The notes below the pieces were generated by a model. That model was given only the letters and a program-made list of their open reading frames with translations, had not been told where the DNA came from and made no database searches. From an uncultured bacterium (GTDB taxonomy: Bacteria > Babelota > Babeliae > Babelales > Vermiphilaceae): a stretch of DNA of 64,000 nt. Below are positions 12,250 to 63,200 of the stretch, piece by piece. The stretch is taken from NCBI GenBank assembly GCA_963702025.1, contig OY969699.1:704001-768000 (forward strand), given 5' to 3'. How positions within the stretch are numbered: the stretch's first letter is position 1; each line of letters starts with the position of its first letter. Made by a program: the position numbers and the translations under genes.

Positions 12250-12345
12250 GTTTATCCTGAGCTTGTCGAAGAGCGGCCAGCGGCAAGAAATATATTTATT
12301 GATCGCCCTCCCAGCCGTCGCTCTCCGAGCTATGGCGGGCACGGC
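12250..12345. repeat. REP-like palindromic modules
   Basis: GTTTATCCTGAGCTTGTCGAAG and CCCAGCCGTCGCTCTCCGAGCTATGGCGGGCA, matching copies at ~62650-62720 and ~31350. Confidence 0.75.
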
Positions 12346-12403
12346 CGGCGGTGGCCAAAGTAAAAATATAATTTCTACAAATGTGTTGCATGAAAATTAG
12401 TAT

Positions 12404-13918
12404 TTAAGAAAACAATTTCTGCAAAAAAGACATTTTACACACTGCATATCGTTGTCGCGCAATTTCTTGCAAACGGCGACTTTCTGAATTACCCATAGTA
12501 TTTATGAGTTCACTATCAACCTTCATACCATTCTTTTTTTGGCGTTCTGCGATAAAAAGTGCCAGAAGTTGGTCAAGCGATGCATGATTAGTGATTGCGC
12601 GATGCGTATAATAGAGGTAGGGATAATAACGCGTATCAAGCAGATAAAATCCTTTTATAATGATAGCAGATCCATCGGGAATTATTGTGTGATAAACCCA
12701 TGCCGGTTCTGCCGGATATGTTTTAAGACACGTTTGTTTAAGACAATGCACTAAGCAGTTTTCTGAATTATGTGGGCCTGCATAGAGTAGCGAATCGGCA
12801 CTCAGTTGTGTTTCATGATTGAATTTACCAATATTGTAGGCTATTAAGGACCAAGTGCGCGAGTTAATACGATTACGCAGAAGATTAATTACTCTATTTT
12901 TTTTAGAAATTCCTACCAAGAGAGTATTTTCATCGGCGAAAGAAAATTGTTCCACTTTATCATGATAATGCAAGGAATGGAAAAGTTGACGTGTTGTAAA
13001 ATTCCACAATGCTATAGTTTTATCTTGAACCGTGGCGATTTGCTGCCCGGATGGGCTGAATTGAGCAAGTGTTTTTTCTGTTCCGCCGGTATTTGAGGTA
13101 ACATGGGGCAAGGTGAAGAGTGGTGTGCCCTCAATGGTGTTGATTGTGATGGTATTCTCAGCGGGCTGATGGGAAATATAATAGTTTTGTGTTGGATCCA
13201 ATATCGGCTTTACAAATGGCGAGTTAATCAGCCGCTTTTTATTATTGGTTACTACATAGTTTTCGATTTTCTGGGGAATTTTATTGCAGCCGGCGATCTC
13301 TTTTTTTGCAATATCATACGTAAATAAATTAGATTTGGTGAGTATATCATGAAAAAAGATGTGGCTGCTGTCATCAGAGAAGGTAAAATAGGTGCAGATA
13401 TGTCCGATTTCAGTATCGCCGCAACTTATTTGTGGATGTACTATGCGGTTTTCTTTGCCGCTTGGCAGATGGATAAGCGCTAAAGTATCAACCGGCCATT
13501 GGGGTTCATTATTGGGGAGTCTTTTTTGTGTGATATAACAAAGATATTCGGAATTAGGGCTAATTTTAAAATTGCTGTCGCAGTATATCTCTTTGTCGGA
13601 TAGTCGTAGTGGCTTTGCATTATTGATCTGTTCAAATATTTCCGCTTTTTCTTTGACGATTGTTGTTTTGACATGTTCTTGTAATTCTTGGGGTAACAAT
13701 CGTGCTTTTTTGCGCAATAGGTGCAATTGATCAAGAGAATGTTTGGTGTTATTAGGATCGAAAGTGTCAGCGAATGTGCAGGCGGCTAATTCTTTTAAGC
13801 TGGGCAGTTCTTTAAATGCTTTTTTGTGTGTATCAGTTTTGATGGTTAGCTTTTCCATGCCTAAACTGGTAAAAAAAATACAGAGGGATAAGATAAAATG
13901 TTTTTTGCAAAGCTTCAT
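12404..13918 (-). CDS. Exported beta-propeller (WD40-like) protein with SOCS-box-like N-terminus
   Basis: Signal + ME; LPSLKELAA...LPQELQEHV; ISPNSEYL and FSPSGQQIAT...IALWN blades. Confidence 0.75.
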   Translation of the reverse strand: MKLCKKHFILSLCIFFTSLGMEKLTIKTDTHKKAFKELPSLKELAACTFADTFDPNNTKHSLDQLHLLRKKARLLPQELQEHVKTTIVKEKAEIFEQINNAKPLRLSDKEIYCDSNFKISPNSEYLCYITQKRLPNNEPQWPVDTLALIHLPSGKENRIVHPQISCGDTEIGHICTYFTFSDDSSHIFFHDILTKSNLFTYDIAKKEIAGCNKIPQKIENYVVTNNKKRLINSPFVKPILDPTQNYYISHQPAENTITINTIEGTPLFTLPHVTSNTGGTEKTLAQFSPSGQQIATVQDKTIALWNFTTRQLFHSLHYHDKVEQFSFADENTLLVGISKKNRVINLLRNRINSRTWSLIAYNIGKFNHETQLSADSLLYAGPHNSENCLVHCLKQTCLKTYPAEPAWVYHTIIPDGSAIIIKGFYLLDTRYYPYLYYTHRAITNHASLDQLLALFIAERQKKNGMKVDSELINTMGNSESRRLQEIARQRYAVCKMSFLQKLFS

Positions 13919-13947
13919 TCATCCCTTTCTTCAAGATGTCGAGCGCT

Positions 13948-14664
13948 TCATTTTTCTAAGCAGATTTCAACCGGCACCCTCTCAATTTGTTTTCCATCTG
14001 GTAAAAAATGATGGTTTAAATACTCAGATGACGGGTTGGGTTTGCCCGGATAAAATTCAAAACGGTATCCTTCTTTTGATGCTACAAATACATAGATACT
14101 CTGTTCTAATAAATCTTGGATAGTTTTTGCTATAAATTGTTCTTTATCCGGCATTTCTTGCGCACGTTCGGGCGAATAATTACCGAGAGCATCCTGATAC
14201 AACAGTTTTTGAAATTGTTCGTCAGTTTTATAAATGTTCATAATGGTGTTTCGATAGGTCTGATAATCGGGATTCTGGCTAATAAATTCCTCCCATGAAA
14301 CAACCTCACATCCCTGGAAATCTGATGCAAATCTTTTTTTTAATAGTTGCGCATCCTGAGTGCATTGCGCGTATGCTTTTTGCGCGTCGCCATCATAATT
14401 GAGGCTGAGCGCATTGATGTGCGTTTTCTCGGTAAATAAAATGGTAACCTTTCCCGCAACGTTTTCTTTAATGTTCCTGACTAAAGTATTAACTTTAAGG
14501 GCGCCGAGCGATCCTTCATGAAACAGTGAATGGATGCTAAAAAGAATGATGACCGGCTCTTGCGCATTCAACCAATCTGCTGAATGCGTCTTCATTCTTA
14601 TTTTACTTTTACCATACAAATTTGGGTTGATTTTAATGCGCTTAACCCAAGCATACAAACTCAT
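13948..14664 (-). CDS. Divergent cyclodipeptide-synthase-like protein (XYP type), paralog 2
   Basis: IILFSIHSLFHEG, SWEEF..NPDY, IYKTDEQF, DLLEQ, FYPG resemble the XYP-CDPS motif layout. Confidence 0.55.
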   Translation of the reverse strand: MSLYAWVKRIKINPNLYGKSKIRMKTHSADWLNAQEPVIILFSIHSLFHEGSLGALKVNTLVRNIKENVAGKVTILFTEKTHINALSLNYDGDAQKAYAQCTQDAQLLKKRFASDFQGCEVVSWEEFISQNPDYQTYRNTIMNIYKTDEQFQKLLYQDALGNYSPERAQEMPDKEQFIAKTIQDLLEQSIYVFVASKEGYRFEFYPGKPNPSSEYLNHHFLPDGKQIERVPVEICLEK

Positions 14665-14680
14665 AATACACCTCCATTTA

Positions 14681-15394
14681 TTATTCTAAGCGAAACCCTA
14701 CGGGTATCTGCTTTATCTGTTTTTCAGCGGGTAGAAATTTGTGATTAATGTATTCGGATGACGCATTTGGTTTGCCCGGATAAAACTCAAAACGGTACCC
14801 TTTTTTGGATGCCACAAATAGATAAATAATTAGTTCTAGTAAATCTTTAATGGTTTTGGTGATAAATATATCTTTGTTAGGTACTGCTTGCGCTCGTTCC
14901 GGGGTATAGCTCTTAAGTGCATCTTGATACAGCAGTTCTTGGAAATGAGTATCAGTTTTATAGATATCCATAACCATATCATGATAGCTCTGATAATCTG
15001 GATCTTGGCTAATAAATTCTTCCCAAGAAACAACCGCACAACCTTGAAAATCGGTTGCAAATCTACTTTTTAATAGTTGAGCATCCTTGATGCACTGGGT
15101 GTACGCTTTGTCTCTATCGCCACCATAATTGAGGCTGAGTGCATTTATGTGTGCTTTCTCGGTAAACAAAATAGTAACGTTCCCATTTACATTTGCTTTA
15201 ATATTAGAAACGAGCGTACTTACTTGAAGAGATCCAATCAATCCTTCATGAAAAAGCGAATGGATACTAAAAAGAATAATAACCGGCTCATGAGTGCCTA
15301 TCCAGTCGGCTGACCGGGTTTTGATTACTATCTTATTGTTGTTATATAAATCGGGATTAATTTTAGTGCGTTTTACCCATGCAGATGAACTCAT
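14681..15394 (-). CDS. Divergent cyclodipeptide-synthase-like protein (XYP type), paralog 1
   Basis: Colinear close paralog of 13948-14664 with the same motifs (DLLEL, FYPG). Confidence 0.55.
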   Translation of the reverse strand: MSSSAWVKRTKINPDLYNNNKIVIKTRSADWIGTHEPVIILFSIHSLFHEGLIGSLQVSTLVSNIKANVNGNVTILFTEKAHINALSLNYGGDRDKAYTQCIKDAQLLKSRFATDFQGCAVVSWEEFISQDPDYQSYHDMVMDIYKTDTHFQELLYQDALKSYTPERAQAVPNKDIFITKTIKDLLELIIYLFVASKKGYRFEFYPGKPNASSEYINHKFLPAEKQIKQIPVGFRLE

Positions 15395-15424
15395 AAAACC
15401 TCCATTATCAACATATTTAATCTC

Positions 15425-16579
15425 TTATGAGCCAATTACCTGCTTGGCAAGTTGGATTGCGCGCGCAATAGCTTTGGCAGCTTCATCTTTGAGATCAATG
15501 CGAACTGCCGATTCAACAACAAATTCATTGCCTTGTGCATCTTTATAAGATTGTTGCGGCCATGATATTTTAGGCGTAATTGAAAGAATATCAACAAGCT
15601 GATTTTGTGGAGAATATTTGAGAAAGAAATTTTTAGATGAAGGATTATTGGTAACTGTTTCAGAGATAAGGGTGCGATACTGCCCTATGCTTCTTCTTAA
15701 AAGACTTATTTCATCTTGAATATCGGCGGTGGCAATAACATCCGGATATGATAAGTTATTCTTTTTTCTATAGCTAAGGTATTCGGCTTGAGTGTTATGG
15801 ACCAGTAAAGTGATCTTTGCATCCGGAAACATCTTTTTAAGACAAGTAACAAATTGCTTAATTCGAGCTTCTTGATAAAAAATTTCACCACTGATTTGTG
15901 TTACTAATTCATGTGCAGGCGTCTGAGGATCTCCGCCCCATTCTTTGTGTGTCAAGTCGATAATCTGATCAATTATTGGATTTAAGCAAATAGTATAAGT
16001 GGGGCTTATTTCACGGGTATCTTTTAAGAGATCACGTGATGCAACATACGGTGTAAAGTTTATATCTATCAGATTAATTATTAGATGTGCATCCGGTTTT
16101 TGCGCTAAGGTTCGGGTTGCAATAAGTAAATCTTGTAGCATTCCGCCCGATCCAAATGAAGTATATTCAACCTTTGGCTGAGTTTGTAATTTTTTGAGCA
16201 ATGCATCACTTACTATTTCTTCAAAGATTCTTCTAAAACCGGGATTATCTGTGCGTGTTAAAAGGCAAAAATCTGCTGAACATTCTCCTAATAAAAAGAA
16301 AGGACATTGTTGTTCATATTTTGCAATTATTACTTGAATAGCCTGATACATTTCCTGCGGGCTTAATTTGTTAACATCTTGCTCTTCCAGCCATTTGCAT
16401 TCTTTAGCAAATTCAGCGCGAACTTTGTGGGCAATTTCAAGCGCTTTTACCGGATTATTAATTAAAAAAGTAGGGTTATGCACTGTTTCTTGGCGATTGG
16501 TATCCATGCCAATAAGGGGAATAGCAAAGGATAACAGTGAGCAGATTGTTAAAAATTTGAATACTTGTTGAGTTTCCAT
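15425..16579 (-). CDS. Exported hypothetical protein, possible SAM-methyltransferase-like fold
   Basis: Signal + MD; YTSFGSGGMLQD followed by IINLID resembles motifs I and II. Confidence 0.5.
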   Translation of the reverse strand: METQQVFKFLTICSLLSFAIPLIGMDTNRQETVHNPTFLINNPVKALEIAHKVRAEFAKECKWLEEQDVNKLSPQEMYQAIQVIIAKYEQQCPFFLLGECSADFCLLTRTDNPGFRRIFEEIVSDALLKKLQTQPKVEYTSFGSGGMLQDLLIATRTLAQKPDAHLIINLIDINFTPYVASRDLLKDTREISPTYTICLNPIIDQIIDLTHKEWGGDPQTPAHELVTQISGEIFYQEARIKQFVTCLKKMFPDAKITLLVHNTQAEYLSYRKKNNLSYPDVIATADIQDEISLLRRSIGQYRTLISETVTNNPSSKNFFLKYSPQNQLVDILSITPKISWPQQSYKDAQGNEFVVESAVRIDLKDEAAKAIARAIQLAKQVIGS

Positions 16580-16643
16580 AAAAATCTCCATTTGGTTAAT
16601 GATTTAAATAGTACATTTCTTATAATTTATAAAAATAATTTTT

Positions 16644-18923: not shown

Positions 18924-18940
18924 AATAATACTTGTTACCC

Positions 18941-21112: not shown

Positions 21113-21320
21113 AATAACCTCTATTTTTGTATTTTTAACCAATAAACTGTTCTCAAAGAGGGGACAAAAATAGCTTAAAAGCTAATAATAATCCCACAAT
21201 TCAATATTTATAATAGCAATTGTTAAGGAAAAGTAAAGGGGAGGCTCATAGCCAAATAATGGCTTAGTTTAACCTATAATCACCTAAAAATGTTACAAAT
21301 AGAAAACATATAAGATTTGC

Positions 21321-30627: not shown

Positions 30628-32256
30628 TTAAAACAACATTTTAATAAATATCCATAATGAATTGGTTGCATAAACCCCCGACCAAAATGGGTACTGCTCT
30701 TCTTTTTCTTTTACCAAATAGGTTGATAAGCCGCCGGCAATAAGCATGAGCGATGTATCGAGCCCCATTAATAAGCCGCCAAAGACCAGTGTGGGATTCA
30801 CGCCAATATATTTTAAACAATAGCTAAAGATAAAGCCAAGAATCATTACGATATAATCAAAATGGAATGCATTTACCAAAACGGCACGGCTTTGCGCGCG
30901 CGATGCAATAAGTTCCGGGCTGCCCAGGCCAAAATGGGTTATTAAGAGCCAAAAAATGGCACCGACGCTTATTGCGCTCGCCGCAAGGCCGATCCATTGA
31001 TACGTGCGCATGGTGCGATGGTTGATATTTGCCAGTTGCGCAACTTTTTGGCCAAACATCATGTCAACGGCAATCACACCTGCCAGCTCCACAAATGTTG
31101 CCAGAATGGTAACTTGAATCGCATTAAACCGGAAGAGCAAAAGCCCCGGGATCATCACAAAGGTGGCAAATCTACCAAGCGGTGCGATGCCTAATTTGCC
31201 CGCTATAACCAGAAGCTGGTAACTGCACAATGCAGTGGCGGCAAGGAGGTAACATTGCGCGAGGACGGAAAAGGAGAAATAGATTAAAAAGGCGATCGGG
31301 ATAAGGAGGGGGATTATGGTTCGAGACCCTTCGACAATTCTTTGATGCGCTTGCCCGCCATAGCTTTTAGCGACGGCTGGGTATCGAAGGATATTTTGAA
31401 CAGAAAAATTTTTAAATATCTTCCTCAATCCCTTAGGAATATCAATCAAACTCAGCATCGCACCTTGAATAGCCATGCCCGCGCCAAAAGCCAAAACGTA
31501 ATCCGAATGGGAAAGATAACTAAAAAAAAGAGTATGCACCGGATCAATCATCGCAAGCCGAGCAATAACTGCGACCAACAAGGGCAGTGCGATCACATGG
31601 CCGGTGGTAAAGCCAATGGCCCAAAACATCGGAATCATATCGGTGCGGGTGGTCACCAGCGGCAGGGAAAATATGTTCCACGAGAGCGCCGGCAAGAGGG
31701 TGAGCCGAGCCGGAAGCAAGGCGGTAAATGTTTGTAGTATTCCATACCCGAGCGCGAGCGCAGCGCCCAGTGCTAACTGGTATGCCTTTTTTAATTGATT
31801 TTGCACGGCGATCATATTATAAACCATCTGGCCGATAGGAAATACCATGGTGCTATCGGCTAGTAATTTTTTTTCAAGATATCCGGCAATAAGAAAACCA
31901 AAGCTGCCGGCAGCAAAAACAAGAGCTGCCAGTAGGGAGCAAAAAATAAAAGGGGTGGCCATCCAGGAATTAAAAAGTGTTTGATCCAAAAAATAAAGAG
32001 TCGGGAATGAAAATGCACAGGCCATGGCAACTGCACCGCCAATGCCACCAGCCGCCGTTGCGAGGGCGATGGAACGCATTTGTGTTTTGATGGCAAGATT
32101 ATAAGCAACAAGTTTAATAATAATAGTGCCCATTAAAACAAGTGTCATCTCCATCCATGGACCAATGGGCGTTGCCAAGGCAACATAGCTGATCACGAGC
32201 GTTGCAAAGAGAGAAAAAAGAAAAGCGATGATTGTGGTAAATAAAGCAATTATCAT
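30628..32256 (-). CDS. OPT/YSL-like polytopic membrane transporter
   Basis: More than 12 Gly/Ala-rich TM segments; FSFPTLY, FPIG, YQWIG. Confidence 0.6.
   Translation of the reverse strand: MIIALFTTIIAFLFSLFATLVISYVALATPIGPWMEMTLVLMGTIIIKLVAYNLAIKTQMRSIALATAAGGIGGAVAMACAFSFPTLYFLDQTLFNSWMATPFIFCSLLAALVFAAGSFGFLIAGYLEKKLLADSTMVFPIGQMVYNMIAVQNQLKKAYQLALGAALALGYGILQTFTALLPARLTLLPALSWNIFSLPLVTTRTDMIPMFWAIGFTTGHVIALPLLVAVIARLAMIDPVHTLFFSYLSHSDYVLAFGAGMAIQGAMLSLIDIPKGLRKIFKNFSVQNILRYPAVAKSYGGQAHQRIVEGSRTIIPLLIPIAFLIYFSFSVLAQCYLLAATALCSYQLLVIAGKLGIAPLGRFATFVMIPGLLLFRFNAIQVTILATFVELAGVIAVDMMFGQKVAQLANINHRTMRTYQWIGLAASAISVGAIFWLLITHFGLGSPELIASRAQSRAVLVNAFHFDYIVMILGFIFSYCLKYIGVNPTLVFGGLLMGLDTSLMLIAGGLSTYLVKEKEEQYPFWSGVYATNSLWIFIKMLF
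31316..31393. repeat. REP-like element inside the transporter CDS, in frame
   Basis: Reverse complement CCTTCGATACCCAGCCGTCGCTAAAAGCTATGGCGGGCAAG...GTCGAAGGGTCTCGAACCAT. Confidence 0.85.
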
Positions 32257-35065: not shown

Positions 35066-35194
35066 CCTGCAGGATTAATTCCTCGAAGCTTCAAACATGG
35101 TTCGATACACTGCGCTTCGCGCAGTACTCACCACGAACGGAATCCAACACCGCTCGTCCTGAGTAGAAATCGAAGATTTCGTATCGAAGGATAT
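35066..35194. repeat. REP-like composite palindromic element
   Basis: CATGGTTCGATAC..ACTCACCACGAACGG..CCGCTCGTCCTGAGTAG..GTATCGAAGGATAT; 35150-35194 is the exact reverse complement of 37838-37882. Confidence 0.9.
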
Positions 35195-36924: not shown

Positions 36925-37984
36925 TGCCCGCTCCTCCTTCTTGATTAACCATCACTTGTATCATTTTTTTATTTAATGCCGCATCTTTTTTTTCATGCTG
37001 CTCTAAAATTCGTGCCAGGGACGCGGATAATTTTTTTTCTGCTGCCGACTTTTGTTGGCCCTCTTTTTGATCGGCACCACTTTGTTTTTCCGCTTGATTT
37101 TGAGCGGCTTGTTCATCCTTTTTTTGCTGTTGTTGTTGAGATTCCTTTTGTGAATTCTGCTCTTTTTTGTCCGATTTATCGGCAGCATCCTTTTGTTGAT
37201 TTTGTTCTTGCTGCTGCTGTTTTTTATTTTCTTGTTTTTGTTGGTCCGATTGTTGATTATTTTTTTGCTCTTGGTTTTGTTCTTTTTCTTTTTTATTTTT
37301 CTCTTGCTCTTGCTGCTCATTTTCTTTTTTTTGTTGCTCGGAAGATTTTTTGTCTTTATTTTCTTCTTGATTTTGATCTTTTTCTTGGTCTTTTTTATCC
37401 TGATTATTCTCATCATTCTTTTGCTGTTGTTGCTTTTCTTGTTCCATCATTTTTTTTACTATTTCTTTATTGTGCGCGGCACGTTCATTGCTTGGATTAA
37501 GATCGAGCACCTTATCATACGCGGCAAGCGCCTCAGGCAGTTTTTTTAATTTTACATAGCTGTTGCCGGCATTAAATAACGATTGTTCTTGCAGAATGCG
37601 ATCGGTGTTGCTTTGCGCCGCTTTAGTAAAATAAGAAAGAGCTTGATCATATTCACCAGCTTTAAATGAACTCACGCCTGCATCATACAAAATAGTGGGG
37701 GATTCAGGATTATCAACGAGCACTTTTTTCATCAGCTCTTTTGAGCTGTTCCAATCATTATTTTTGCCTTTAATGATAGCGCGATCATATTCGAATGCGC
37801 CGTAAAGATTAAGCGAGAAAAAACAGAAGAGTATTAAATATCCTTCGATACGAAATCTTCGATTTCTACTCAGGACGAGCGGGCTCGGAGTCCGTTCGTG
37901 GTGAGTGCGAACAAAGTGAGCGTATCGAACCATGTTTCGAAGCAAACTTCGAGAAGTTAAACCTGCGGAGATTAAAAGCATCAT
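36905..37984 (-). CDS. batC: BatC-like TPR protein with Q/K/E-rich region; N-terminus contains a REP element
   Basis: TPRs (LYDAG, LFNAGN, NPSNERAAHN); ATGA overlap with batB stop. Confidence 0.8.
   Translation of the reverse strand: MMLLISAGLTSRSLLRNMVRYAHFVRTHHERTPSPLVLSRNRRFRIEGYLILFCFFSLNLYGAFEYDRAIIKGKNNDWNSSKELMKKVLVDNPESPTILYDAGVSSFKAGEYDQALSYFTKAAQSNTDRILQEQSLFNAGNSYVKLKKLPEALAAYDKVLDLNPSNERAAHNKEIVKKMMEQEKQQQQKNDENNQDKKDQEKDQNQEENKDKKSSEQQKKENEQQEQEKNKKEKEQNQEQKNNQQSDQQKQENKKQQQQEQNQQKDAADKSDKKEQNSQKESQQQQQKKDEQAAQNQAEKQSGADQKEGQQKSAAEKKLSASLARILEQHEKKDAALNKKMIQVMVNQEGGAGNDEHAY
37838..37968. repeat. REP-like composite element within the 5' end of batC
   Basis: Inverted copy of 35066-35194. 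Confidence 0.9.
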
Positions 37985-44071: not shown

Positions 44072-44184
44072 CGCTCGTTCATGGTGACCCTTCGAGATGC
44101 AGCTTCGCTGCTCCTCAGGATGAGCCGGAAGGACGCGTTTACTCCCGAGCGCTAGTCGAGGGGTTTAGCGAAGGCTGGGTCGAA
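44072..44184. repeat. REP-like composite element downstream of topA
   Basis: CCTTCGAGATGCAGCTTCGCTGCTCCTCAGGATGAG..GGAAGGACGCGTTTACTCCCGAGC..GTCGAGGGG, shared with 62776-62851. Confidence 0.85.
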
Positions 44185-44219: not shown

Positions 44220-44257
44220 GAAATTATAATAATGCTAAATATCATATGGAGGTTTAT

Positions 44258-44971
44258 ATGAAAAAGCACAGTACATTTATTCTGGCCGGATTGGTTTTCT
44301 TGCCTGTATTTCCAATGGAAAATACATCTAAAACTGAACTGCATACTGCTGCAGCAAATAGCTCATTAAAAAATAAAGTACAAAAAATAATTGAGTCGAA
44401 TCCAGTGCAAATACATCAAAAAGATGGCGATGGCAATACCCCATTGCACGAGGCTGCTTATTATGGTTGTACAGAAAATGCTGATCTTTTACTGCGATAC
44501 GGGGCTCAGGTTAATTCGCTGAACTATAAGGGCGAAACGCCGTTGGATAAAGCACATTATAAGTGCCAGTATGCGCTGGAGAAATTACTCAAAAAACATG
44601 GTGGCCAGTATTCAAAATATAAAGATTCTCTCAAAGAACTTGATATCTTATTATGGCAAGCAAGTGGAAATTTTGATTATGAAAAAATGCTTGATCTTCT
44701 CAAGCGTGGCGCTAATCCCAATGCAATGCATGATGATGGCAGTGGTGTTAAAATGACGCCTCTTGCTAGAATTGCGCGATCTGCCGATTACACAACACCA
44801 CATAAGGTTATGCAGGTTTTATTAGATTATGGTGCTAACATAAATCTAGAAGATAGTGCAGGCTGGACCCCTTATGGAAGAACATCGCAAGGTGCAGATA
44901 GCCAAACCGGTGACTCTATTGGAAAATTCTTTAGTCAAAGGAATGCAAGATTTAAAAAAGGAAGCATTTAG
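44258..44971 (+). CDS. Exported ankyrin-repeat protein
   Basis: Signal + ME; GNTPLHEAA, GETPLDKA, GWTPY. Confidence 0.9.
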   Translation: MKKHSTFILAGLVFLPVFPMENTSKTELHTAAANSSLKNKVQKIIESNPVQIHQKDGDGNTPLHEAAYYGCTENADLLLRYGAQVNSLNYKGETPLDKAHYKCQYALEKLLKKHGGQYSKYKDSLKELDILLWQASGNFDYEKMLDLLKRGANPNAMHDDGSGVKMTPLARIARSADYTTPHKVMQVLLDYGANINLEDSAGWTPYGRTSQGADSQTGDSIGKFFSQRNARFKKGSI

Positions 44972-45016
44972 CACATACACTCAAAAAAAATATAAATGTA
45001 TAAAATTGGAGGAATT

Positions 45017-46282
45017 ATGAAATTACATAAATCAGTACTATTAATAACCGGTTTGATTTCCGCAATGCATGCAAGTGGCATGCAGCCGGTGCAATATCTA
45101 AGAAATGCGCAGCAAGAAATACTCATTCAGTTGGTAAGCTCAGAAAAGACATCCGTATTCGTACCGAGGGAAAGTGCATTGCAAGCCGCCACTCTGGCGA
45201 CTATTTTAAACCCCCCGCAAGAAGCAGGAACATTCCAAGAAACTCAGGCAAAAAGTATCACATTGAGAGCAATTGATAATGCAACGCTTAATATTGTTGC
45301 GCAAATTATGCGCTCAGCTGATTGCCATCATGAGTTGAAGGGGAAAGCATTTTTAGATGCAATAAGCAAAGAAATTACCATTAACGATGACCAGATTATT
45401 CCGGTATTGAATGCATGCAATTTTCTTGATTATGCTCCGGGAATCAGATTAATTGCTATGGAAATGATCAACAAGCCAGCGATTATTAATCATGTAATAA
45501 AGAGCATTCAAACGAATCAACTTTCTGATGATACTGCCAAGCAAATAGCAAAAATCTATTATTTGATTACGCAGAAGGATCTTGAAGGAGTTGATAAAAA
45601 ACCGATTGTTACAATTGGTTTTTCAATCCGTGATTATCTTGAATATTTGCCTGATGTTATCAAAAAACGTAAAACTGAGACTGAATTAGATCTAAGTGGC
45701 TTGCGGCTCAATGATACTGATGGATTACGAGATATTCCTGACATTAATAATCTGCAATATTTATTGCTTTATAGCAATCAGCTGACGCAATTGCCTGCTA
45801 CGCTTTTTAATGGGCTTAATAATCTGCAATATTTATACCTTCATAACAACCAACTGACGGAATTGCCTGCTACGCTTTTCAATGGCCTTAATAATCTGCG
45901 AGTACTACATCTTGATAACAATCAACTTACGCAGTTGCCTGCTACGCTCTTCAATGGGCTTAATAATCTGCAAGAACTATATCTTATGAGTAACCAACTG
46001 TCGAAATTGCCTGCTACGCTCTTCAATGGGCTTAATAATCTTCAATTGCTATATCTTGATAACAACCAACTGACAGAATTGTCTGCCATGCTCTTCAATG
46101 GTCTTAATAATTTGCGATATTTATCGCTTTCTAACAACCAACTGACGGAATTGTCTGCCATGATCTTCAATGGGTTTAATAATCTGCGAGTATTAACTCT
46201 TTTTAATAACCAACTGACCGATGAAAACAAAGAACAGCTAAGGAATGCATTGCCTAGGATAACTTTTTTAAATTTAGATTAA
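45017..46282 (+). CDS. Exported Skp1/BTB-like + leucine-rich-repeat protein
   Basis: Signal + MQ; LVSSE...VLNACNFLD; seven 24-aa LRRs LNNLxxLxLxxNQLTELPATLFNG. Confidence 0.9.
   Translation: MKLHKSVLLITGLISAMHASGMQPVQYLRNAQQEILIQLVSSEKTSVFVPRESALQAATLATILNPPQEAGTFQETQAKSITLRAIDNATLNIVAQIMRSADCHHELKGKAFLDAISKEITINDDQIIPVLNACNFLDYAPGIRLIAMEMINKPAIINHVIKSIQTNQLSDDTAKQIAKIYYLITQKDLEGVDKKPIVTIGFSIRDYLEYLPDVIKKRKTETELDLSGLRLNDTDGLRDIPDINNLQYLLLYSNQLTQLPATLFNGLNNLQYLYLHNNQLTELPATLFNGLNNLRVLHLDNNQLTQLPATLFNGLNNLQELYLMSNQLSKLPATLFNGLNNLQLLYLDNNQLTELSAMLFNGLNNLRYLSLSNNQLTELSAMIFNGFNNLRVLTLFNNQLTDENKEQLRNALPRITFLNLD
45745..46220 (+). repeat. 72-bp tandem coding repeats (LRR), about 7 units
   Basis: AATAATCTGC...AACCAACTGACG..TTGCCTGCTACGCTCTTCAATGG repeated. 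Confidence 0.9.
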
Positions 46283-46296
46283 AAATGTGAGGAATT

Positions 46297-47562
46297 ATGA
46301 AATTACATAAATCAGTACTATTAATAACCGGTTTGATTTCCGCAATGCATGCAACCGGCATGCAGCCGGTGCAATATCTAAGAAATGCGCAGCAAGAACT
46401 AGTATCATCCATGATCGAATTGGTAAGCGCGCAAGATAAATCAGTATTTGTACCAAGAGAAAGTGCATTGCAAGCCGCTACTCTGGCGACTATTTTAAAC
46501 GCTGCGCAAGAAGCAGGAGCGTTTCAAGAAGCACAGACAAAAAGTATTCCGTTAAGAATAATTGATACTGCAACGTTGGAAATTATTGGGCAGATTATGC
46601 ACTCGGCTGATCGCCATAGCCAGTTGAAAGGAAAGGCATTTTTAGAAGCAATAAGCAAAGAAATTACCATTGCCGATGAACGGTTTATTTCCGTATTAAA
46701 TGCATGCAATTTTCTTGACTATGCTCCCGGAATCAGATTAATTGCTATGAAAATGATCAATAGGCCTACCATTATTGAGCAGGTAATAAAACTTATTCAA
46801 TCAAATCAGCTTTCTGATGATACTGCCAAGCAAATAGCAAAAATCTATTATTTGATTACGCAGAAGGATCTTGAAGGAGTTGATAAAAAACCGATTGTGA
46901 AGATTAGTTTTTCAATCCGTGATTATCTTGAATATTTGCCTGATGTTATCAAAAAACGTAAAACTGAAACCAAATTAGATCTAAGTGGCTTGCGGCTCAA
47001 TGATACTGATGGATTACGAGATATTCCTGGCCTTAATAATCTGCAAGTTTTATGGCTTTATAGCAATCAGCTGACGCAATTGCCTGCTACGCTTTTTAAT
47101 GGGCTTAATAATCTGCAATATTTATACCTTCATAACAACCAACTGACGGAATTGTCTGCTACGCTCTTCAATGGCCTTAATAATCTGCAAGTTTTATGGC
47201 TTTATAGCAATCAGCTGACGCAATTGCCTGCTACGCTTTTTAATGGGCTTAATAATCTGCGAGTATTAAATCTTTCTAACAACCAACTGACGGAATTGTC
47301 TGCTACGCTCTTCAATGGCCTTAATAATCTGCAAGTTTTATGGCTTTATAGCAATCAGCTGAGTGAATTGTCTGCCATGCTCTTCAATGGTCTTAATAAT
47401 TTGCGATATTTATCGCTTTCTAATAACCAACTGACGGAATTGCCTGGTACGCTCTTCAATGGGCTTAATAATCTGCAATATTTATCGCTTTCTAATAATC
47501 AACTCACCGATGCTAATAAAGAGCAAATAATGAATGCATTGCCTGGGGTAAATATTTTTTAA
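46297..47562 (+). CDS. Exported Skp1/BTB-like + LRR protein, tandem duplicate
   Basis: Nearly identical N-terminus to 45017; seven LRRs. Confidence 0.9.
   Translation: MKLHKSVLLITGLISAMHATGMQPVQYLRNAQQELVSSMIELVSAQDKSVFVPRESALQAATLATILNAAQEAGAFQEAQTKSIPLRIIDTATLEIIGQIMHSADRHSQLKGKAFLEAISKEITIADERFISVLNACNFLDYAPGIRLIAMKMINRPTIIEQVIKLIQSNQLSDDTAKQIAKIYYLITQKDLEGVDKKPIVKISFSIRDYLEYLPDVIKKRKTETKLDLSGLRLNDTDGLRDIPGLNNLQVLWLYSNQLTQLPATLFNGLNNLQYLYLHNNQLTELSATLFNGLNNLQVLWLYSNQLTQLPATLFNGLNNLRVLNLSNNQLTELSATLFNGLNNLQVLWLYSNQLSELSAMLFNGLNNLRYLSLSNNQLTELPGTLFNGLNNLQYLSLSNNQLTDANKEQIMNALPGVNIF
47034..47510 (+). repeat. 72-bp tandem coding repeats (LRR), about 7 units
   Basis: Same unit; QVLWLYS cassette occurs three times. 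Confidence 0.9.
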
Positions 47563-50370: not shown

Positions 50371-50415
50371 TGTGTTTAAGTCCTTTCTAACAGCTTTTTA
50401 ACTTTTTTTACTAGG

Positions 50416-50566
50416 ATGGTTCGATACAATTGCTTCGCAATTACTCACCACGAACGGATCAACGTGTTCAGCATGAGCGGAGGGTTTCCGTTCGTCCCGA
50501 GCTTGTCGAGGGATCGCTCTAAGTAGCCCACCAAAGTTTTAACGAAGGCCGGGGTATCAAAAGATA
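50416..50566. repeat. REP-like composite element between ftsH and rpmB
   Basis: ATGGTTCGATAC-aattgcttcgcaatt-ACTCACCACGAACGG...CCGTTCGTCCCGAGCTTGTCGAGGG. Confidence 0.85.
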
Positions 50567-54273: not shown

Positions 54274-54290
54274 AAAAATCCTTTATATTC

Positions 54291-55064: not shown

Positions 55065-55073
55065 ATTGATCCT

Positions 55074-56345: not shown

Positions 56346-56430
56346 TCTATTCTCCTTAAAAAATAGCAATAAAAAAACTCCCGCACACTCTACCATTGGC
56401 AACCAAGAAAGACAAGTACGGGGGCATGAA

Positions 56431-57726: not shown

Positions 57727-57736
57727 AGTATTTCCA

Positions 57737-58606
57737 TCATGGTTTAAACGTTATGCGTAATGTTTTGCCATACGCCCACTGAGGCGGCGTTAAATGCGAA
57801 GCTGCTTTGCGAGCGGCACTATCAAATACTAATACTCCCGAAGATTGTTCCACATCCAAATCGGTTATCGAGCCATCAAATCCAATGCTGATCTTTATAG
57901 TACAGGCGCTCTCTTTAGGCATGCCGGGCGGCGGGCTCCAATGCTGCGCCATTTCTTGTTGAATGTATTCCTGTAATTGCAAAGCTTCCATCTCTTCCCG
58001 ACCAACATATACCACTTCCTGGCCAGCTGCATCAAGAGCATTCTGAGCGACGGGCGGTACGACCGGTTCAGATTGTTGGCTTGGGGAGGGGTTTGGTTTT
58101 ATTGGGTCTTCTTTTACCGTGGGCTCAATTATTTTTGGTTGTTGTTTTACCGGTTCTGGTTTTTGCTTTACGGCGCTTTGTTTTTTCGTGGAAGAAGTTG
58201 CGGCTTTTTTAACTTTTTGTTCTTTTTTTGCTTTTGCATTTTTCTTTGTTTTTTTAGGGGGTACCACACCAATAGTGGTTCCTTTTTTTTCATGGCGAAT
58301 ACCGGCTTCTTTTACCGATTCATCCGATTTTGCGACGGTCTGGACACCACCACTCGATGAGCTAGTATTTTTTTTATTGCTCACTGGTTGTTGCTTGATT
58401 GATTTATACAGCGGCATAAAGACAACCGGCACATCGGTATCAATCATTGTGCTGGTAACTATAACCGAATACACCGTTGAACCTTTATAGATAAATAAAA
58501 GGGAAAATAATCCAAACAGATGGAAGAGGCCCGAGATAGCAAGAATTTTTCTCCCCAATGGCAGATCTTTAAGCAGCTTTAGCCGTAGCCAGTGCAACAC
58601 GATCAA
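57737..58606 (-). CDS. tolA: TolA/TonB-like energy transducer
   Basis: TM helix with SxxxH, K/P-rich linker, WSPP...SSG..FD.AA C-terminal domain. Confidence 0.75.
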   Translation of the reverse strand: MIVLHWLRLKLLKDLPLGRKILAISGLFHLFGLFSLLFIYKGSTVYSVIVTSTMIDTDVPVVFMPLYKSIKQQPVSNKKNTSSSSGGVQTVAKSDESVKEAGIRHEKKGTTIGVVPPKKTKKNAKAKKEQKVKKAATSSTKKQSAVKQKPEPVKQQPKIIEPTVKEDPIKPNPSPSQQSEPVVPPVAQNALDAAGQEVVYVGREEMEALQLQEYIQQEMAQHWSPPPGMPKESACTIKISIGFDGSITDLDVEQSSGVLVFDSAARKAASHLTPPQWAYGKTLRITFKP

Positions 58607-58991
58607 CGCCCCCTACCAGTTTTACCTCTTCAACAAGACCGATGATTTCTTTATAGGCCACATCCCCATCACCTTTTACAAAAACCGTTTTATTTTTTTG
58701 ACCCACCATTTTCTTTTTTAACTGGCTCATCATCTGATCATGACTCAATTGTGCACCGTTTAAAAAGTAATTGTGCTGCTTATCAATATGAATTACTAGA
58801 TCTTCTTGCAACCCTTGCGCCTCCTGCAACTTTCCTTTTGGCAAATCAATTTTGATTGCATTGTTAAGAAGAGGGGAAGTGACCATAAAAATTACCAATA
58901 GCGTCAATGCTGTATCGATAAGCGGCGTGAGAGTAATTTCTGGTATCATTACTGCAGAGCGACGTTTATGTCGCCGATACATTCGTGACAT
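58569..58991 (-). CDS. tolR: TolR/ExbD
   Basis: EITLTPLID..LTLLVIFMVTSP, IDLP, VKGD. Confidence 0.88.
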   Translation of the reverse strand: MSRMYRRHKRRSAVMIPEITLTPLIDTALTLLVIFMVTSPLLNNAIKIDLPKGKLQEAQGLQEDLVIHIDKQHNYFLNGAQLSHDQMMSQLKKKMVGQKNKTVFVKGDGDVAYKEIIGLVEEVKLVGGVDRVALATAKAA

Positions 58992-59001
58992 ACAAGTCTC
59001 C

Positions 59002-59690
59002 TTATTGATGAATCAGGCGATGGGCAATTGCATAAAATTTATCGGCTAATGCCGCGCATCGTTGTTCAACCGATCGTAACAGAGTATTTAAATAAACAAA
59101 CATAACCAGTGCCGGTATGGCAACCATTAAACCCGCCAAGGTGGTTATTAATGCTTCGGCAATACCGGGCGCTACCGTTGCAATGTCGGCCGATTGTTTT
59201 TGGCTTATACTAATAAAAGCATGGACTAAGCCCCACACAGTCCCGAATAACCCAAGCAAGGGAGAAACTGCTGCCGTTGCTGAAAGAAAAGGCATATTGC
59301 TCTCTTCTTGCGCAACTAAATCATCGATCACTTGATATGAATTTTCTCGTAATAGTTCACGTTCGTCGGCAGTTAACCCGATTCTTCCTTGTAATTTAGC
59401 TGTTTCTAATAATGATTTTAAAAACATAAGATTGCGATTGATAAAATAACCACCGGCAGTAGTGTTCAAGCGATACCCAAGCGCTAGAAGATCATCAAAA
59501 CTTTGCACGTTTCCTAATTGATTAAGCGCAGCATCTAGTTCTTTTTTTTCTTCCGGATCATAATTAATTTATAAAAGAAGACTGCCCAGGAAGTAATAGA
59601 AAGCACTAAAAGAATTAATAATACCGCTTTTGAAATCGCATCTGATTGCGCTATCAATTGCCATAAAGCATTTCCCGTAAATAATGACAT
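59002..59690 (-). CDS. tolQ: TolQ/ExbB, frameshifted at A8 run 59542-59549
   Basis: 5' part MSLFTGNALWQLIAQSD...SITSW; 3' part PLLGLFGTVWG, VAPGIAEAL; one extra A gives a continuous 229-aa ORF. Confidence 0.88.
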
Positions 59691-59857
59691 AGTAAATCCC
59701 TTTTTAAAGCAATTTTTTGTTTACATAAAGTGTATCAGAGCAGACTTTTTATTTAAATGGTATTTTATTAAGAATTTTTTTTACATTGCTATCTGCGACA
59801 ATTTTAATGTATTATGAAGCAATACCAAAGATGAACAAAAAAATTGGAGAATATAAA

Positions 59858-59959
59858 ATGCCAGTTCAACTCAAAGCAATTTTGTGTATTATATTTCCGC
59901 CCTATCTGATTTATAAAATTATTTTATTTGCACACAAGCGATATAATTTTCTTGATTAA
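59858..59959 (+). CDS. Putative 33-aa hydrophobic small protein
   Basis: GGAGA RBS; MPVQLKAILCIIFPPYLIYKIILFAHKRYNFLD*. Confidence 0.4.
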   Translation: MPVQLKAILCIIFPPYLIYKIILFAHKRYNFLD

Positions 59960-60010
59960 CATTACTTAACGTTAATTTGAGCTAAGAATTTGTAAAAGTT
60001 ATCATAAAAC

Positions 60011-60161
60011 CCGCTCGTGGTGAGTGCAGCCGCAGGCTGCGTATCGAACCATGCGGGTTTAATAAAATTTCTTTTCGCTGACAATTTTAAAGAGTTCAGC
60101 TCTTTTAATATTAGGCCGCATGGTTCGATACGCTCGCTATGCTCGCACTCACCACGAGCGG
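60011..60161. repeat. Inverted pair of 46-bp REP units
   Basis: 60011-60056 and 60116-60161 are reverse complements except for the central variable segment. Confidence 0.92.
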
Positions 60162-60208
60162 CCTTTTTCAATTTGTGACTCCAGTTTCTTAGCTCTAATT
60201 CGTGTTAC

Positions 60209-61645
60209 TTACTTTAAAACACGCTTGAGCAATTCTTGTTTATCTTTGATGCCTTCATCAATTTGTATCTCGTATGCTTTTTTAAGTAATTTACCCATTT
60301 CCGGTCCCGGTTTAACAATACCCATGAGATCACGGCCAAGCAGCAATGGTTCCACGGGTTTATAAACAACCTGCGCAGTCTTGGCATTTCTTAAGAAGGC
60401 AGTGATATCGGGTATGTTTTTAGTGAGCGGTTCCTGCCCACGCCCGTTTCGGCCACGTTTATCAGCAAGCGCAACTTTTGCTAACAATTCAATGGTAATA
60501 TCTGGTGCTAGTTTATTAGCAAGCCGTCTATATGCCGGTTGCTTTGCACCATTTGCAATAAACTGTCCGGGCGCCATATGATAGCGCACCAACTTAGCTA
60601 CTGCATCTATTAAATCTTTGCGTCGCGTAATGCGTTTAAGCATTTTTTTAGCGAGTGGCACACCCGTTTCTTCATGTCCATAGCTCACAATCTCGCCCTT
60701 AACTTTTTTGGTGGTATTTACCTTGCCAAGATCATGGCACAAAATTGCATAAAGAGCGGTTAATTTTTGAGCAGAATCAACATATTTTAGCTGAGCGGCC
60801 GCATCAAGCGCTTGCATGGTATGTTCAAACACATCCCCTTCAGGATGCCAAGAAGGATTTTGTTTAACGCCAATAGTATCAGCAAGCTCAGGGAGTATTT
60901 CTTTGAGACGACCAATCTTACGCAGCCAGCGAATACCCAATGATGGCCGCACTGATCTGAGCAGTAATTTATCAAATTCACCTTCAATCCGCTCAACGGA
61001 AATATCTTTTAAACTCATCGTGCGACAAATGGTATTTAATTGGGCACTCGGCTTCATTCCAAAACGGCCAAGAAATTGCATTACCCGGAAAAGCCGTAAG
61101 GGATCCTGGGTGAAAAGATGCGCATCGGGCGCGCGCAGAATCCCTTTTTTTAAATCAGAATACCCGTGCCATGGATCAATTAATTCTTTGGTAAGCAAAT
61201 CAATTCCCATCGCATTAATGGTAAGGTCGCGCCGTTTGAAAGCGTCAGCAAAAGTCATATTTGGATCGATAATAACTTTCGGGTGTCTTCCGCTGCTATC
61301 TTTGCGCGGCATAGACCAATCCGCACTTGTCCGCCGAAGCCCTTTTTGAGCGTAGGCCGGATCGAGCCCATGAAGACGCAATACCCCAAAGGATTTACCC
61401 ACAAGGCTCACCGGACCAAACGATGCGAGGATTTTTTGCAACTGCTCTAGCGATAAACCATGGACCTCGATATCAATATCTTTTATGGGAACATTCATCA
61501 AAAGATCGCGAACCGCCCCACCAACTAGCAATGCTCTGCCGCCCGCTTGATCAATTTTGGTAACAATTTTTGCAATAATCGGATTTTGTTTAAAAATTTT
61601 CTTAAAATGACTTTCAACTTTTGCATTTATTTTTGTAAACTTCAT
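60209..61645 (-). CDS. cca: CCA tRNA nucleotidyltransferase with HD domain
   Basis: VGGAVRD, DIDIE, RRDLTINAM, DPLRLFR, ERI, HPEGDV..H, HDLGK. Confidence 0.93.
   Translation of the reverse strand: MKFTKINAKVESHFKKIFKQNPIIAKIVTKIDQAGGRALLVGGAVRDLLMNVPIKDIDIEVHGLSLEQLQKILASFGPVSLVGKSFGVLRLHGLDPAYAQKGLRRTSADWSMPRKDSSGRHPKVIIDPNMTFADAFKRRDLTINAMGIDLLTKELIDPWHGYSDLKKGILRAPDAHLFTQDPLRLFRVMQFLGRFGMKPSAQLNTICRTMSLKDISVERIEGEFDKLLLRSVRPSLGIRWLRKIGRLKEILPELADTIGVKQNPSWHPEGDVFEHTMQALDAAAQLKYVDSAQKLTALYAILCHDLGKVNTTKKVKGEIVSYGHEETGVPLAKKMLKRITRRKDLIDAVAKLVRYHMAPGQFIANGAKQPAYRRLANKLAPDITIELLAKVALADKRGRNGRGQEPLTKNIPDITAFLRNAKTAQVVYKPVEPLLLGRDLMGIVKPGPEMGKLLKKAYEIQIDEGIKDKQELLKRVLK
61325..61360. repeat. 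36-bp palindromic REP module in frame within cca
   Basis: Minus strand CCGGCCTACGCTCAAAAAGGGCTTCGGCGGACAAGT = PAYAQKGLRRTS. Confidence 0.75.
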
Positions 61646-61673
61646 ATACCACATCTAAAAAAAAGGAATTTTT

Positions 61674-62597
61674 ATGAACAATTTTCTTAAACATCTTCTT
61701 ATTTGTACCATTCTTGCAACTCACGGCACAATGTCTGCCTTTTCATTCAAAAAAATATACAGTTATGTAATGCCTAATAAAATACCACAAGAAATCGTCT
61801 ATGAAGAATATCCGGCAAAAAAAGTCACAAAATTAACGGTAAAAAATAAAAATGGCAATATTACCCTTAAAACGGACGCAACCCAAAGTGCCATTCTTTT
61901 AAAGGGAATAAAGAAAGCTCTGGAAGAAGAACAATTGGGACAATTTAAGATTACTCAAAAAATTGTCGCCCAAGAAATGATCATTGAGATTGCTTATGAT
62001 GAAAGTATCGACGGTTCGGTTGATTTGGAAATTATTGCCCCTAAAACAGTGGCCTTAGATATCTGCACTATTGAGGGATCAATTTTTATTAAAGAACCAC
62101 ACAAACAAGTTTATGCTTGCACACAAAAAGGACCAATAGAAATTGTTAACCCTCTCAGTTCCATCGATGCTGTCACTCAAAATAAAGGAACCATCACTAT
62201 CTATAAACCCCAGGATCAAGTTAAAGCACAAACTAATCAAGGCAATATTGTTATTCATGACGCGCAAAGCACTGTTTTTGCTAATTCCACCTACGGCAAT
62301 GTGCAACTCTTTGCCAAAGAGGTCCCTTCAACCAGCATGATAAAACTAACTTCAGTGAGTGGCTCCATTTCTGTGCACTTGCCATCGGATGTTAATGCTG
62401 ATGTTCAAGCATCAACAAAGCATGGCACCATATTCTCCGATCATTTTATTACACTCAAACCGCAAACCACACAGCTCAACAAATACACCTGGAAACGGTT
62501 ACAACAGCACATCGACGGCACACTAGGAACCGGCGAAGCACAAATAAAACTCAGTTCCGTGCGCAGTGATATTAAATTGTTGGAATTAAAAGCGTAG
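61674..62597 (+). CDS. DUF4097-like (putative adhesin) beta-repeat protein
   Basis: Signal peptide; repeated xTxxGxI motifs (KNGNI, TNQGNI, STYGNV, SVSGSI). Confidence 0.75.
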   Translation: MNNFLKHLLICTILATHGTMSAFSFKKIYSYVMPNKIPQEIVYEEYPAKKVTKLTVKNKNGNITLKTDATQSAILLKGIKKALEEEQLGQFKITQKIVAQEMIIEIAYDESIDGSVDLEIIAPKTVALDICTIEGSIFIKEPHKQVYACTQKGPIEIVNPLSSIDAVTQNKGTITIYKPQDQVKAQTNQGNIVIHDAQSTVFANSTYGNVQLFAKEVPSTSMIKLTSVSGSISVHLPSDVNADVQASTKHGTIFSDHFITLKPQTTQLNKYTWKRLQQHIDGTLGTGEAQIKLSSVRSDIKLLELKA

Positions 62598-62645
62598 CAA
62601 CCTTCGCAACGTGCTTGCAAGTTTTATGTTCTATCTTATTAAGCG

Positions 62646-62884
62646 GCCCTTCGACCCAGCCGTCGCTCTTCGAGCTATGGCGGGCAGGCTGGGCGTTTAC
62701 TCCTGAGCTTGCCGAAGGGACAGGATAAACTCCGCAATTTTTACGGAAATATCCAGAACTGGCGATAGCCAGGCGTCCTTCGATACGAAAACTGCGTTTT
62801 CTACTCAGGATGAGCGGAAGGACGCGTTTACTCCCGAGCAAAGTCGAGGGGTTGCCGAGCCGGAAGGCCCGGATAAGCGAAGAC
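62646..62884. repeat. Cluster of REP-like modules abutting the tRNA 3' end
   Basis: CCTTCGACCCAGCCGTCG..GGCGGGCAGG; CCTGAGCTTGCCGAAGG; CCTTCGATACGAAAACTGCGTTTTCTACTCAGGATGAGCGG. Confidence 0.88.
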
Positions 62885-62960
62885 TGGTGGAGCTGACCGG
62901 GGTCGAACCGGTGGCCTCATGAATGCCATCCATGCGCTCTACCAACTGAGCTACAGCCCC
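62885..62960 (-). tRNA. tRNA-Ala(GGC), CCA encoded
   Basis: GGGGCTGTAGCTCAGTTGGTAGAGCGCATGGA-TGGCA-TTCATGAGGCCACCGGTTCGACCCCGGTCAGCTCCACCA, 76 nt, G3:U70. Confidence 0.97.
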
Positions 62961-63083
62961 ACAAAATTATTCTGAATTTAAAAAGAGAAGTATGCTCTCA
63001 ATTTTAACGTTACTGTTTCAAAAATCAACATAAAACTGGATTAAGTCCATGCTTCGCAGCTACAAAGAGCAAGCACACGAATG

Positions 63084-63200
63084 CTGCCTGTCCTACGAAG
63101 CTTTAGCGAAGTAGGAAGCTACAGCCCCACAAAAATTTGCTACTCAAAAAAAATGGAAAGGATATACTCATTGTATCTGCATTAAGACAAAAATCAATCC
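63084..63200 (-). pseudogene. Duplicated tRNA-Ala 5' end plus promoter, interrupted by a REP module
   Basis: GGGGCTGTAGCT-[TCCTACTTCGCTAAAGCTTCGTAGGACAGG]-CAG with a TTGATT-16 nt-TACAAT promoter upstream. Confidence 0.55.

Follow-up and report, generated by a model that had tools for sequence, protein, structure and literature searches.

By what means has a family of short, G+C-rich palindromes reached both the intergenic regions and the intact reading frames of a bacterial genome? The question is raised by a stretch of 64,000 nucleotides, called the window below, from an uncultured bacterium of the family Vermiphilaceae (Babelota, Babelales), whose phylum is described as protist parasites in one isolate paper (PMC6561590). 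The genome, labelled G000, is a single contig (C1) of 1,596,033 bp with 39% G+C, and is 95% complete; the window is C1:704001-768000. Window features are given in window positions and all others in C1 positions. Relatives are labelled G081, G023, G118 and so on, and L labels denote loci of relatives. A first-pass annotation, made from the window sequence alone, had proposed a protein-remodelling selfish element resembling repetitive extragenic palindromes (REPs) and the Rickettsia palindromic elements (RPEs). The sequence comparisons described here point to two REP-like hairpin families, each with its own small GIY-YIG nuclease, which are likely cut as single-stranded DNA and spread as selfish passengers. 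We give this reading a probability of about 0.6.

The repeat family itself is real and well supported. Profile hidden Markov models (HMMs) were trained on the copies in the genome and applied at a threshold of at least 12 bits, with the reversed genome as the control. The five HMMs gave 130, 51, 65, 45, and 69 matches in the genome, versus 0, 0, 1, 0, and 0 in the control. Merged, the matches correspond to 160 loci, or 0.9% of the genome; one match within a gene at C1:1452685 was judged doubtful and excluded from the counts. All ten loci recognized in the window by the first-pass annotation are present and belong to this family, and module mapping across the genome confirmed that the modules are combined, inverted, and nested. 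The four strict patterns of that annotation match 5, 3, 3, and 3 times in the window and 33, 8, 19, and 13 times genome-wide.

Two units are distinguished among the modules. Modules A, B, and C represent a single hairpin whose stems covary, a point missed by the first-pass annotation. This unit consists of the head CG(C/T)TC, a 5-bp stem, a GA/GA internal loop, and then either a short loop or a variable inner hairpin. The middle of the outer stem covaries among the pattern matches (GG/CC in 51, CC/GG in 37, and GC/GC in 15). Module D is a second, separate unit with a CYTG-like tag. The 179 A-type units include 29 inward-facing and 25 outward-facing pairs. A strict A pattern has 118 copies in G000 and 0 with the reversed-pattern control, and is found in 35 of the 81 genomes of the order, or 34 of the 80 other than G000.

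The first-pass annotation had suggested a search for a nuclease flanked by these repeats, and small GIY-YIG genes bracketed by modules were indeed found. PF01541 recognizes UvrC and seven standalone small GIY-YIG genes or fragments in G000. The paired nuclease genes code for 80-95 residues and fall into two classes:

C1:1201845, class 1: intact gene bracketed by inward-facing inverted A modules
C1:490414, class 1: intact gene bracketed by a related variant inverted pair
One truncated and one frameshifted copy, class 1: both bracketed
C1:1567655, class 2: gene behind D modules that follow a tRNA
C1:1019370, class 2: gene behind a D-like hairpin
One fragment, class 2

The arms of the second intact class-1 gene (C1:490340-490800) were missed by the HMMs, and related arms are present at C1:1530031. 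Among solved structures in the PDB, the best relatives of class 1 are UPF0213 proteins (E 4e-17), and class 2 is related weakly to SLX1 (E 4e-4). None of four nucleases could be placed by NCBIfam, which gave one weak match far below the cut-off. The closest relatives of the small nuclease carry mostly Candidatus Babeliales, Dependentiae, and TM6 titles.

The association of nuclease and repeat was shown with a survey of 76 distinct nuclease loci, whose flanks were inspected within 220 nt. Here the repeats known as SRM and NTS, which belong to Ssn nucleases, serve for comparison; the Ssn-like group is a proxy for cd10448, consisting of SRM/NTS-flanked proteins and their close relatives and excluding both classes. 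Class-1 genes, fetched by protein similarity, have A modules in 32 of 43, inward on both sides in 21 of the 43, and SRM in 0. Class-2 genes have D modules in 10 of 15, and A and SRM each in 0 of 15. The Ssn-like genes have SRM in 9 of 16, 6 of these 9 having been fetched by the NTS pattern itself, and A in 0 of 16. Seven class-1 genes have D modules next to them as well, in most cases nested in the arms. Across unrelated genomes, the pairing between the type of nuclease and the type of repeat is strict. The same association is seen at the genome level: the A pattern is present in 16 of the 19 genomes of the order with a class-1 gene and in 18 of the 61 without one (80 genomes, in which kin are not independent). 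In G000, SRM gave 2 matches versus 4, 1, 1, 1, and 2 in Markov controls, and NTS gave 0 at three or fewer mismatches.

In a careful phylogenetic tree, from which six fragments were left out, class 1 (98/93), class 2 (100/99), and the SRM-flanked group (100/98) are separate, the bootstrap being not fully settled. YhbQ of Escherichia coli joins class 1 on a long, unreliable branch. In smaller quick trees, the placement of the protein P0004 alone within the NTS-flanked subgroup was rejected (p 1.8e-5), and its placement as sister to the Ssn-like group was not rejected by the approximately unbiased test (p 0.72), which asked for the sister position only.

The hairpins carry a signature of one strand. 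Of 64 scored hairpins, 43 have c(GNA)g as the inner loop of the head-to-tail strand, and none has its complement there. The A arm also folds best on the head-to-tail strand (z -3.6). GCGNAGC mini-hairpins are unusually stable in DNA, and the tested RNA counterpart is far less so, according to one report (PMC13037366). The loop sequences point to hairpins of single-stranded DNA on one strand.

The copies in the window, together with the genes and the element that contain or adjoin them, are as follows:

12247..12343: intergenic; short C-type hairpin at 12247-12271 (plus strand) and D hairpin at 12310-12343 (minus strand)
31316..31396, minus strand: composite A/B-type remnant with a nested D hairpin at 31349-31383, in frame, about 27 residues, in an OPT-like gene at 30628-32256
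35096..35192: outward-facing A/B doublet, intergenic in the bat operon
37839..37934, minus strand: outward-facing B/A doublet, in frame in the tetratricopeptide repeat (TPR; batC-like) gene of the bat operon
44087..44181: one B hairpin, one C-type hairpin, and a partial D; lies downstream of topA
50415..50553: one A hairpin, one short C-type hairpin, and a degenerate D, in intergenic DNA beside ftsH
59968..60205: miniature element of 238 bp, bounded by IS982-type terminal inverted repeats of 21 bp; its flanking repeat is exact over 5 bp, or over 6 bp with the ends moved one base in
60010..60161: A doublet facing inward, formed by the two arms that remain of the C1:1201845 GIY-YIG cassette after internal deletion
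60068..60097, minus strand: remnant of the last codons of the GIY-YIG gene in the doublet spacer
60209..61654, minus strand: CCA-adding enzyme gene with an HD domain, single-copy, 481 aa, intact
61325..61361, minus strand: 36-nt D hairpin with a one-base junction ambiguity, inserted in frame next to a native TCGA of the gene for the CCA-adding enzyme
62653..62884: cluster of D, C, and B modules nested in one another, the first base directly after the CCA end of tRNA-Ala
62885..62960, minus strand: tRNA-Ala(GGC), docking site of the D-type cluster
63085..63139, plus strand: D hairpin fused to a duplicate of about 20 bp from the 5' end of tRNA-Ala

The three in-frame copies claimed for the window, in the OPT-like, TPR, and CCA-adding enzyme genes, are real. 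The clearest is the last, which adds exactly 12 predicted residues that are lacking in 30 of 30 orthologs (29 of 29 plus G081; the ortholog L004, whose match holds a stop, was left out of one alignment and kept in the 29-ortholog comparison). In a structure model from the 29-row alignment (pLDDT 89.8), the insert is a low-confidence loop (residues 99-108) between the strands 91-94 and 111-114, at the tip of a beta-hairpin and two residues before the invariant Asp112; a single-sequence fold was discarded (pLDDT 37). In the TPR gene, about 45 repeat-derived residues lie between the conserved coupled start (37984) and a hydrophobic segment. The site is empty in 13 of 14 orthologs, and in G023 the corresponding position holds an unrelated-looking insert that differs from that of G000. 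The host of the copy at 31316 codes for an OPT-like membrane protein whose Pfam match is just below the cut-off. Its site is a length-variable loop among orthologs; the peptide is absent in 14 of 14 and is therefore new, the net gain in length being unclear. G081 has no match to the OPT-like protein, hence no close empty allele is available for that site.

Outside the window, the net inserts relative to G081 are 40 residues in MnmE, 71 in UvrC, 45 in transketolase, 31 in ArgRS, 44 in GrpE, 28 in HolB, and 38 in YfiH, and these seven sites are empty in all 4-5 orthologs compared per site. MnmE has a further site, at which 4 of 5 orthologs are empty and G081 was filled independently, and a prepilin-like leader gained about 45 residues relative to G081. 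In total, 12 in-frame sites are found in 11 genes (argS, grpE, holB, mnmE, uvrC, tkt, and others), each adding 12-71 residues through composites of 36-213 nt. The ten in-frame host genes checked are all single-copy, and seven of the hosts have pN/pS of 0.20-0.53 against G081, with synonymous sites near saturation. Because ArgRS is essential, its insert is probably tolerated in a working enzyme. Independent in-frame insertions are also found in the relatives: L077 (mnmE of G081), L150 (the batC-like gene of G023), and L053 (a priA-like gene), from a scan of 196 loci of relatives that is too small for a census. L077 and L150 are at the same places as G000 inserts, which suggests tolerant hot spots. 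Among public sequencing runs, no RNA run is listed as containing the sequence. Short identical stretches occur in four DNA runs from a single study, and one stretch spans the CCA-adding enzyme insert with fewer than 31 letters on one side; these runs may be the source sample and were not counted.

The first-pass annotation had named two observations that would speak against its proposal: orthologs with the same peptides, or coding copies confined to pseudogenes. Neither was found; with empty ortholog sites and intact, single-copy hosts, a selfish palindromic family with RPE-like in-frame insertion outside Rickettsia is supported. The genome-wide HMM count that it had called for yielded about 160 loci, but only 12 of them (7.5%) are in frame, although about 81% of the genome is coding by a simple gene model. 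The peptides differ in frame and sequence from gene to gene, and the one modelled insert is a low-confidence loop. The term protein-remodelling is thus overstated, and the in-frame inserts are better read as tolerated passengers.

Repeats also supply the last codons and the stop of four genes (C1:878446-880875, 615520-616110, 144273-145019, and 1557833-1558585). The repeat at C1:616101 has a 16-bp flanking direct repeat, and the one in the C1:144273 gene truncates one of two tandem ribD-like copies.

The D unit has preferred positions. A D box directly follows the CCA of 30 of the 40 tRNA and tmRNA genes by a count from the listing, or 20 of 40 by a stricter HMM count. ARAGORN recognized two tmRNA genes, at C1:182482 and C1:192053, each directly followed by a D module. 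With a pattern allowing five continuations, 23 nested D junctions were recognized, of which 13 abut TCGA. The site of the D hairpin in the CCA-adding enzyme gene, counted among the D ends that abut TCGA, is a native TCGA, and TCGA accounts for 0.24% of sites. The junctions have a one-base ambiguity and no clear duplication. At tRNA-Ala in the window, about 20 bp of the 5' end is duplicated (62950-62970 and 63119-63139, about 170 bp apart) with a D hairpin at the join, which looks like an insertion that rebuilt the tRNA gene. Long target duplications were considered as a general feature of the family and rejected (3 of 160 loci).

Spread driven by the nucleases is likely, and a possible course is as follows. 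The hairpins would fold on one defined strand while the DNA is single-stranded, and the cognate nuclease may nick beside the hairpin, by analogy with SsnA beside NTS. Host repair would then copy the hairpin to new sites, D preferring a TCGA junction. A subset with IS982-type ends would owe its movement to an IS982 transposase no longer present. Gene-breaking insertions would be purged, and in-frame ones in loops, linkers, and leaders would persist as near-neutral peptides.

Several observations weigh against this course or favour a rival in which the nucleases recognize the hairpins without spreading them; new copies would then arise by recombination in the host, by template switching, or by tandem duplication, with the nuclease genes riding along between them or restricting incoming DNA. 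Some of the 18 genomes with the A pattern and no detected class-1 gene hold 33-55 copies, and 3 of the 19 genomes with a class-1 gene lack the strict A pattern. Flanking direct repeats scoring at least 12 are found at only 3 of the 160 loci, there is no uniform insertion footprint, and several of the 13 TCGA junctions share one composite and are probably copies of one event. Spacers are heterogeneous, and local duplications are observed, such as the 35066/37838 pair in the window, in which the doublet at 35096..35192 matches the 37838 locus in inverted orientation, at 94% over 69 nt. By ViennaRNA, which handles sheared G-A pairs poorly, 7 of 9 strands fold no better than shuffles (single D or B units, z -1.7 to +0.5). 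Class 1 is not cleanly resolved as a clade in the smaller trees, and nesting of the whole class in the Ssn-like group is not rejected (p 0.29). The role shown for SsnA in Neisseria is to limit transformation, and in the published account no Ssn-like nuclease is shown to move its repeat, mobility being only suggested (PMC11893778, in the portion available). Nevertheless, we consider recognition without spreading rather unlikely. Against it stand the strictness with which nuclease types and repeat types are matched in unrelated genomes, the precise insertion of D at tRNA ends and TCGA junctions, and the many gene fragments, which suggest gain and decay of cassettes.

The doublet at 60011 raises another explanation. 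The first-pass annotation had recognized this doublet, which is present, but missed the enclosing 238-bp element with its own terminal inverted repeats. On the reverse strand, the locus aligns to the intact nuclease cassette along the two arms and the outer flank on either side, and also along about 30 nt from the gene's last codons. Around 10 further doublets match the cassette with different breakpoints, and internal deletion of the nuclease cassette accounts for about a dozen A doublets held in IS982-type ends. The 21-bp terminal inverted repeats gave 24 loose matches versus 5 in the reversed control, with nine pairs 218-262 bp apart; 5 of the nine have exact 5-6-bp flanking repeats, 3 have one mismatch, and 1 has none. 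In G118 these ends delimit a complete element of 960 bp that codes for a 303-aa protein with a match to PF13612; from this match and the ends, we take the element to be IS982. It is therefore conceivable that the whole family consists of MITEs (miniature transposable elements with inverted repeats) moved in trans by DDE transposases of IS982 or other insertion sequences (IS), the GIY-YIG gene being mere cargo. However, the ends enclose only about 12 of the 160 loci, under a tenth, none of them an in-frame copy, and they match in only 4 of 120 relatives, versus the hairpin pattern in 34 of 80. No IS982-type transposase is left in G000 (no tblastn match at E 0.01). This explanation is refuted for the bulk of the family and is very unlikely for the family as a whole; one cassette was probably captured by an IS982-type shell and then amplified.

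Equally improbable is the maintenance of the hairpins as RNA elements, such as terminators, processing or stability signals, and tRNA trailers, with in-frame peptides that may be adaptive. RNA roles were proposed for REPs by Di Nocera et al. (PMC3733652), the hairpins are regularly present at tRNA 3' ends, and gaps between convergent genes are mildly enriched (31 of 150 loci versus 88 of 973 gaps). Yet Rfam recognized only tRNA-Ala in the window and no RNA family for the hairpins, the triloops are of the DNA-stable kind and on one strand, the presence among genomes is patchy (35 of 81), and the peptides, which orthologs lack, vary from gene to gene in both reading frame and sequence. Least probable of all is the RAYT/TnpA(Y1) enzyme named by the first-pass annotation as the usual spreader of REPs, as for GTAG REPs: the layout is REP/REPIN-like and 5 of 17 repeat-carrying relatives have Y1 genes, but PF01797 has no match in G000 (the search detected the family in 6 of 14 controls), a module lies within 1.5 kb of only 1 of 10 Y1 loci, and the bracketed gene is a GIY-YIG nuclease.

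Four known systems resemble the hairpin-nuclease pairs. One is Ssn/SRM, in which a single-domain GIY-YIG gene of about 95 aa likewise lies between inverted oriented hairpins with many scattered copies and a short tag 5' of the stem. SsnA binds its oriented hairpin when this is single-stranded DNA and in no other form, and its cut falls a few bases upstream (Chenal et al. 2025, PMC11893778). The repeats in G000 differ: they fail the SRM pattern, and their stem has a GA/GA internal loop and an inner hairpin that can be swapped. Among solved structures, the proteins are nearest to UPF0213 and SLX1; they probably lie outside the SRM-flanked group, and a second nuclease/repeat pair is found at tRNA ends. 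The genome table of the Ssn paper gives Ca. Babela massiliensis with zero motifs and no homolog (in the available text and 12 of its 14 supplementary files; PMC11893778).

The CGTC-tagged REPs, such as RPE-4/RPE-6 and Neisseria dRS3, are also short tagged palindromes, mostly in inverted dimers; they have no dedicated Y1 transposase, and some copies lie in frame within genes that serve repair or are tRNA-related (Di Nocera et al. 2013, PMC3733652). They are described with a CGTC/TGTC/CCTC tag, an 8-9-bp stem, and a 4-5-nt loop (PMC3733652), whereas the tags in G000 are CGCTC/CGTTC (A/B/C) or CYTG-like (D), the outer stem is 5 bp, the nested loops are long, and outward dimers are as common as inward ones (25 versus 29). 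Babeliales are not among the phyla listed for CGTC-tagged REPs in the available part of that paper (PMC3733652). RPEs likewise insert in frame into housekeeping genes that are unrelated to one another, in a bacterium with a small genome, and leave the proteins intact (PMC10969869, PMC3733652); RPE-1, however, is about 150 bp with a conserved peptide and nearly half of its copies in genes (PMC10969869, PMC3733652), and the peptides in G000 are not conserved. The REP/REPIN-RAYT systems (REPtrons) similarly have an enzyme gene bracketed by inverted repeats and gene-less doublets spread through the genome, but their enzyme is an HUH Y1 transposase. As for the shell, IS982 elements and MITEs share the terminal inverted repeats of the complete PF13612 element and 5-7-bp AT-rich target repeats; the shell in G000 differs in comprising about 12 loci, with a decaying hairpin-nuclease cassette as cargo and no such transposase left. 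In-frame REPs have already been described for the GTAG and CGTC families and for Rickettsia (PMC3733652; PMC10969869), and the Ssn pairing of nuclease and repeat is likewise already published. In the open-access literature no account was found of UPF0213-like or SLX1-like GIY-YIG genes paired with repeats, or of repeats in Babeliales, the Ssn paper being the only related one recovered.

Other repeated sequences are present in the genome. A separate, non-coding repeat of about 450 nt is found at C1:480250-480740, 482020-482560, ~915050-915530, 1216133-1216550, and 1224779-1224930; it holds a C-type module and long G+C-rich palindromes, and two copies are beside ankyrin-type genes. In the window, positions 44246-47562 contain tandem ankyrin-repeat genes with a 72-bp internal periodicity, neighbours being 82-96% identical. 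Window positions 9054-10015 (C1:713054-714015) are one of five near-identical 961-bp elements, presumably IS630-like. G000 also contains five identical 1231-bp elements, one of which lies inside an IS982-type end (C1:852199), and two pairs of elements of about 1.33 kb.

The spread of non-GTAG REPs and of Rickettsia-type coding repeats is an open question, and Di Nocera et al. found no dedicated transposase for the former in the available part of their account (PMC3733652). G000 could serve as a small set of test cases, as it combines two kinds of nuclease, each with its matching hairpins, with a series of cassette deletions, precise nested junctions, and a 36-nt insertion whose empty site is clean. 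The hairpins are candidate substrates for two uncharacterised GIY-YIG subfamilies. The single-copy genes for ArgRS, GrpE, HolB, MnmE, UvrC, and transketolase, with 28-71 extra residues, are an independent parallel to Rickettsia, another host-dependent lineage. As a tentative extension, small GIY-YIG nucleases of at least three subfamilies (Ssn, UPF0213-like, and SLX1-like) may drive a transposase-free mobile system, each cutting beside its own single-stranded DNA hairpin and having it copied into chosen junctions such as TCGA, tRNA ends, and other hairpins. If true, this would provide the missing mover of non-GTAG REPs and RPE-like coding repeats, as well as two new sets of sequence-specific single-strand nucleases.

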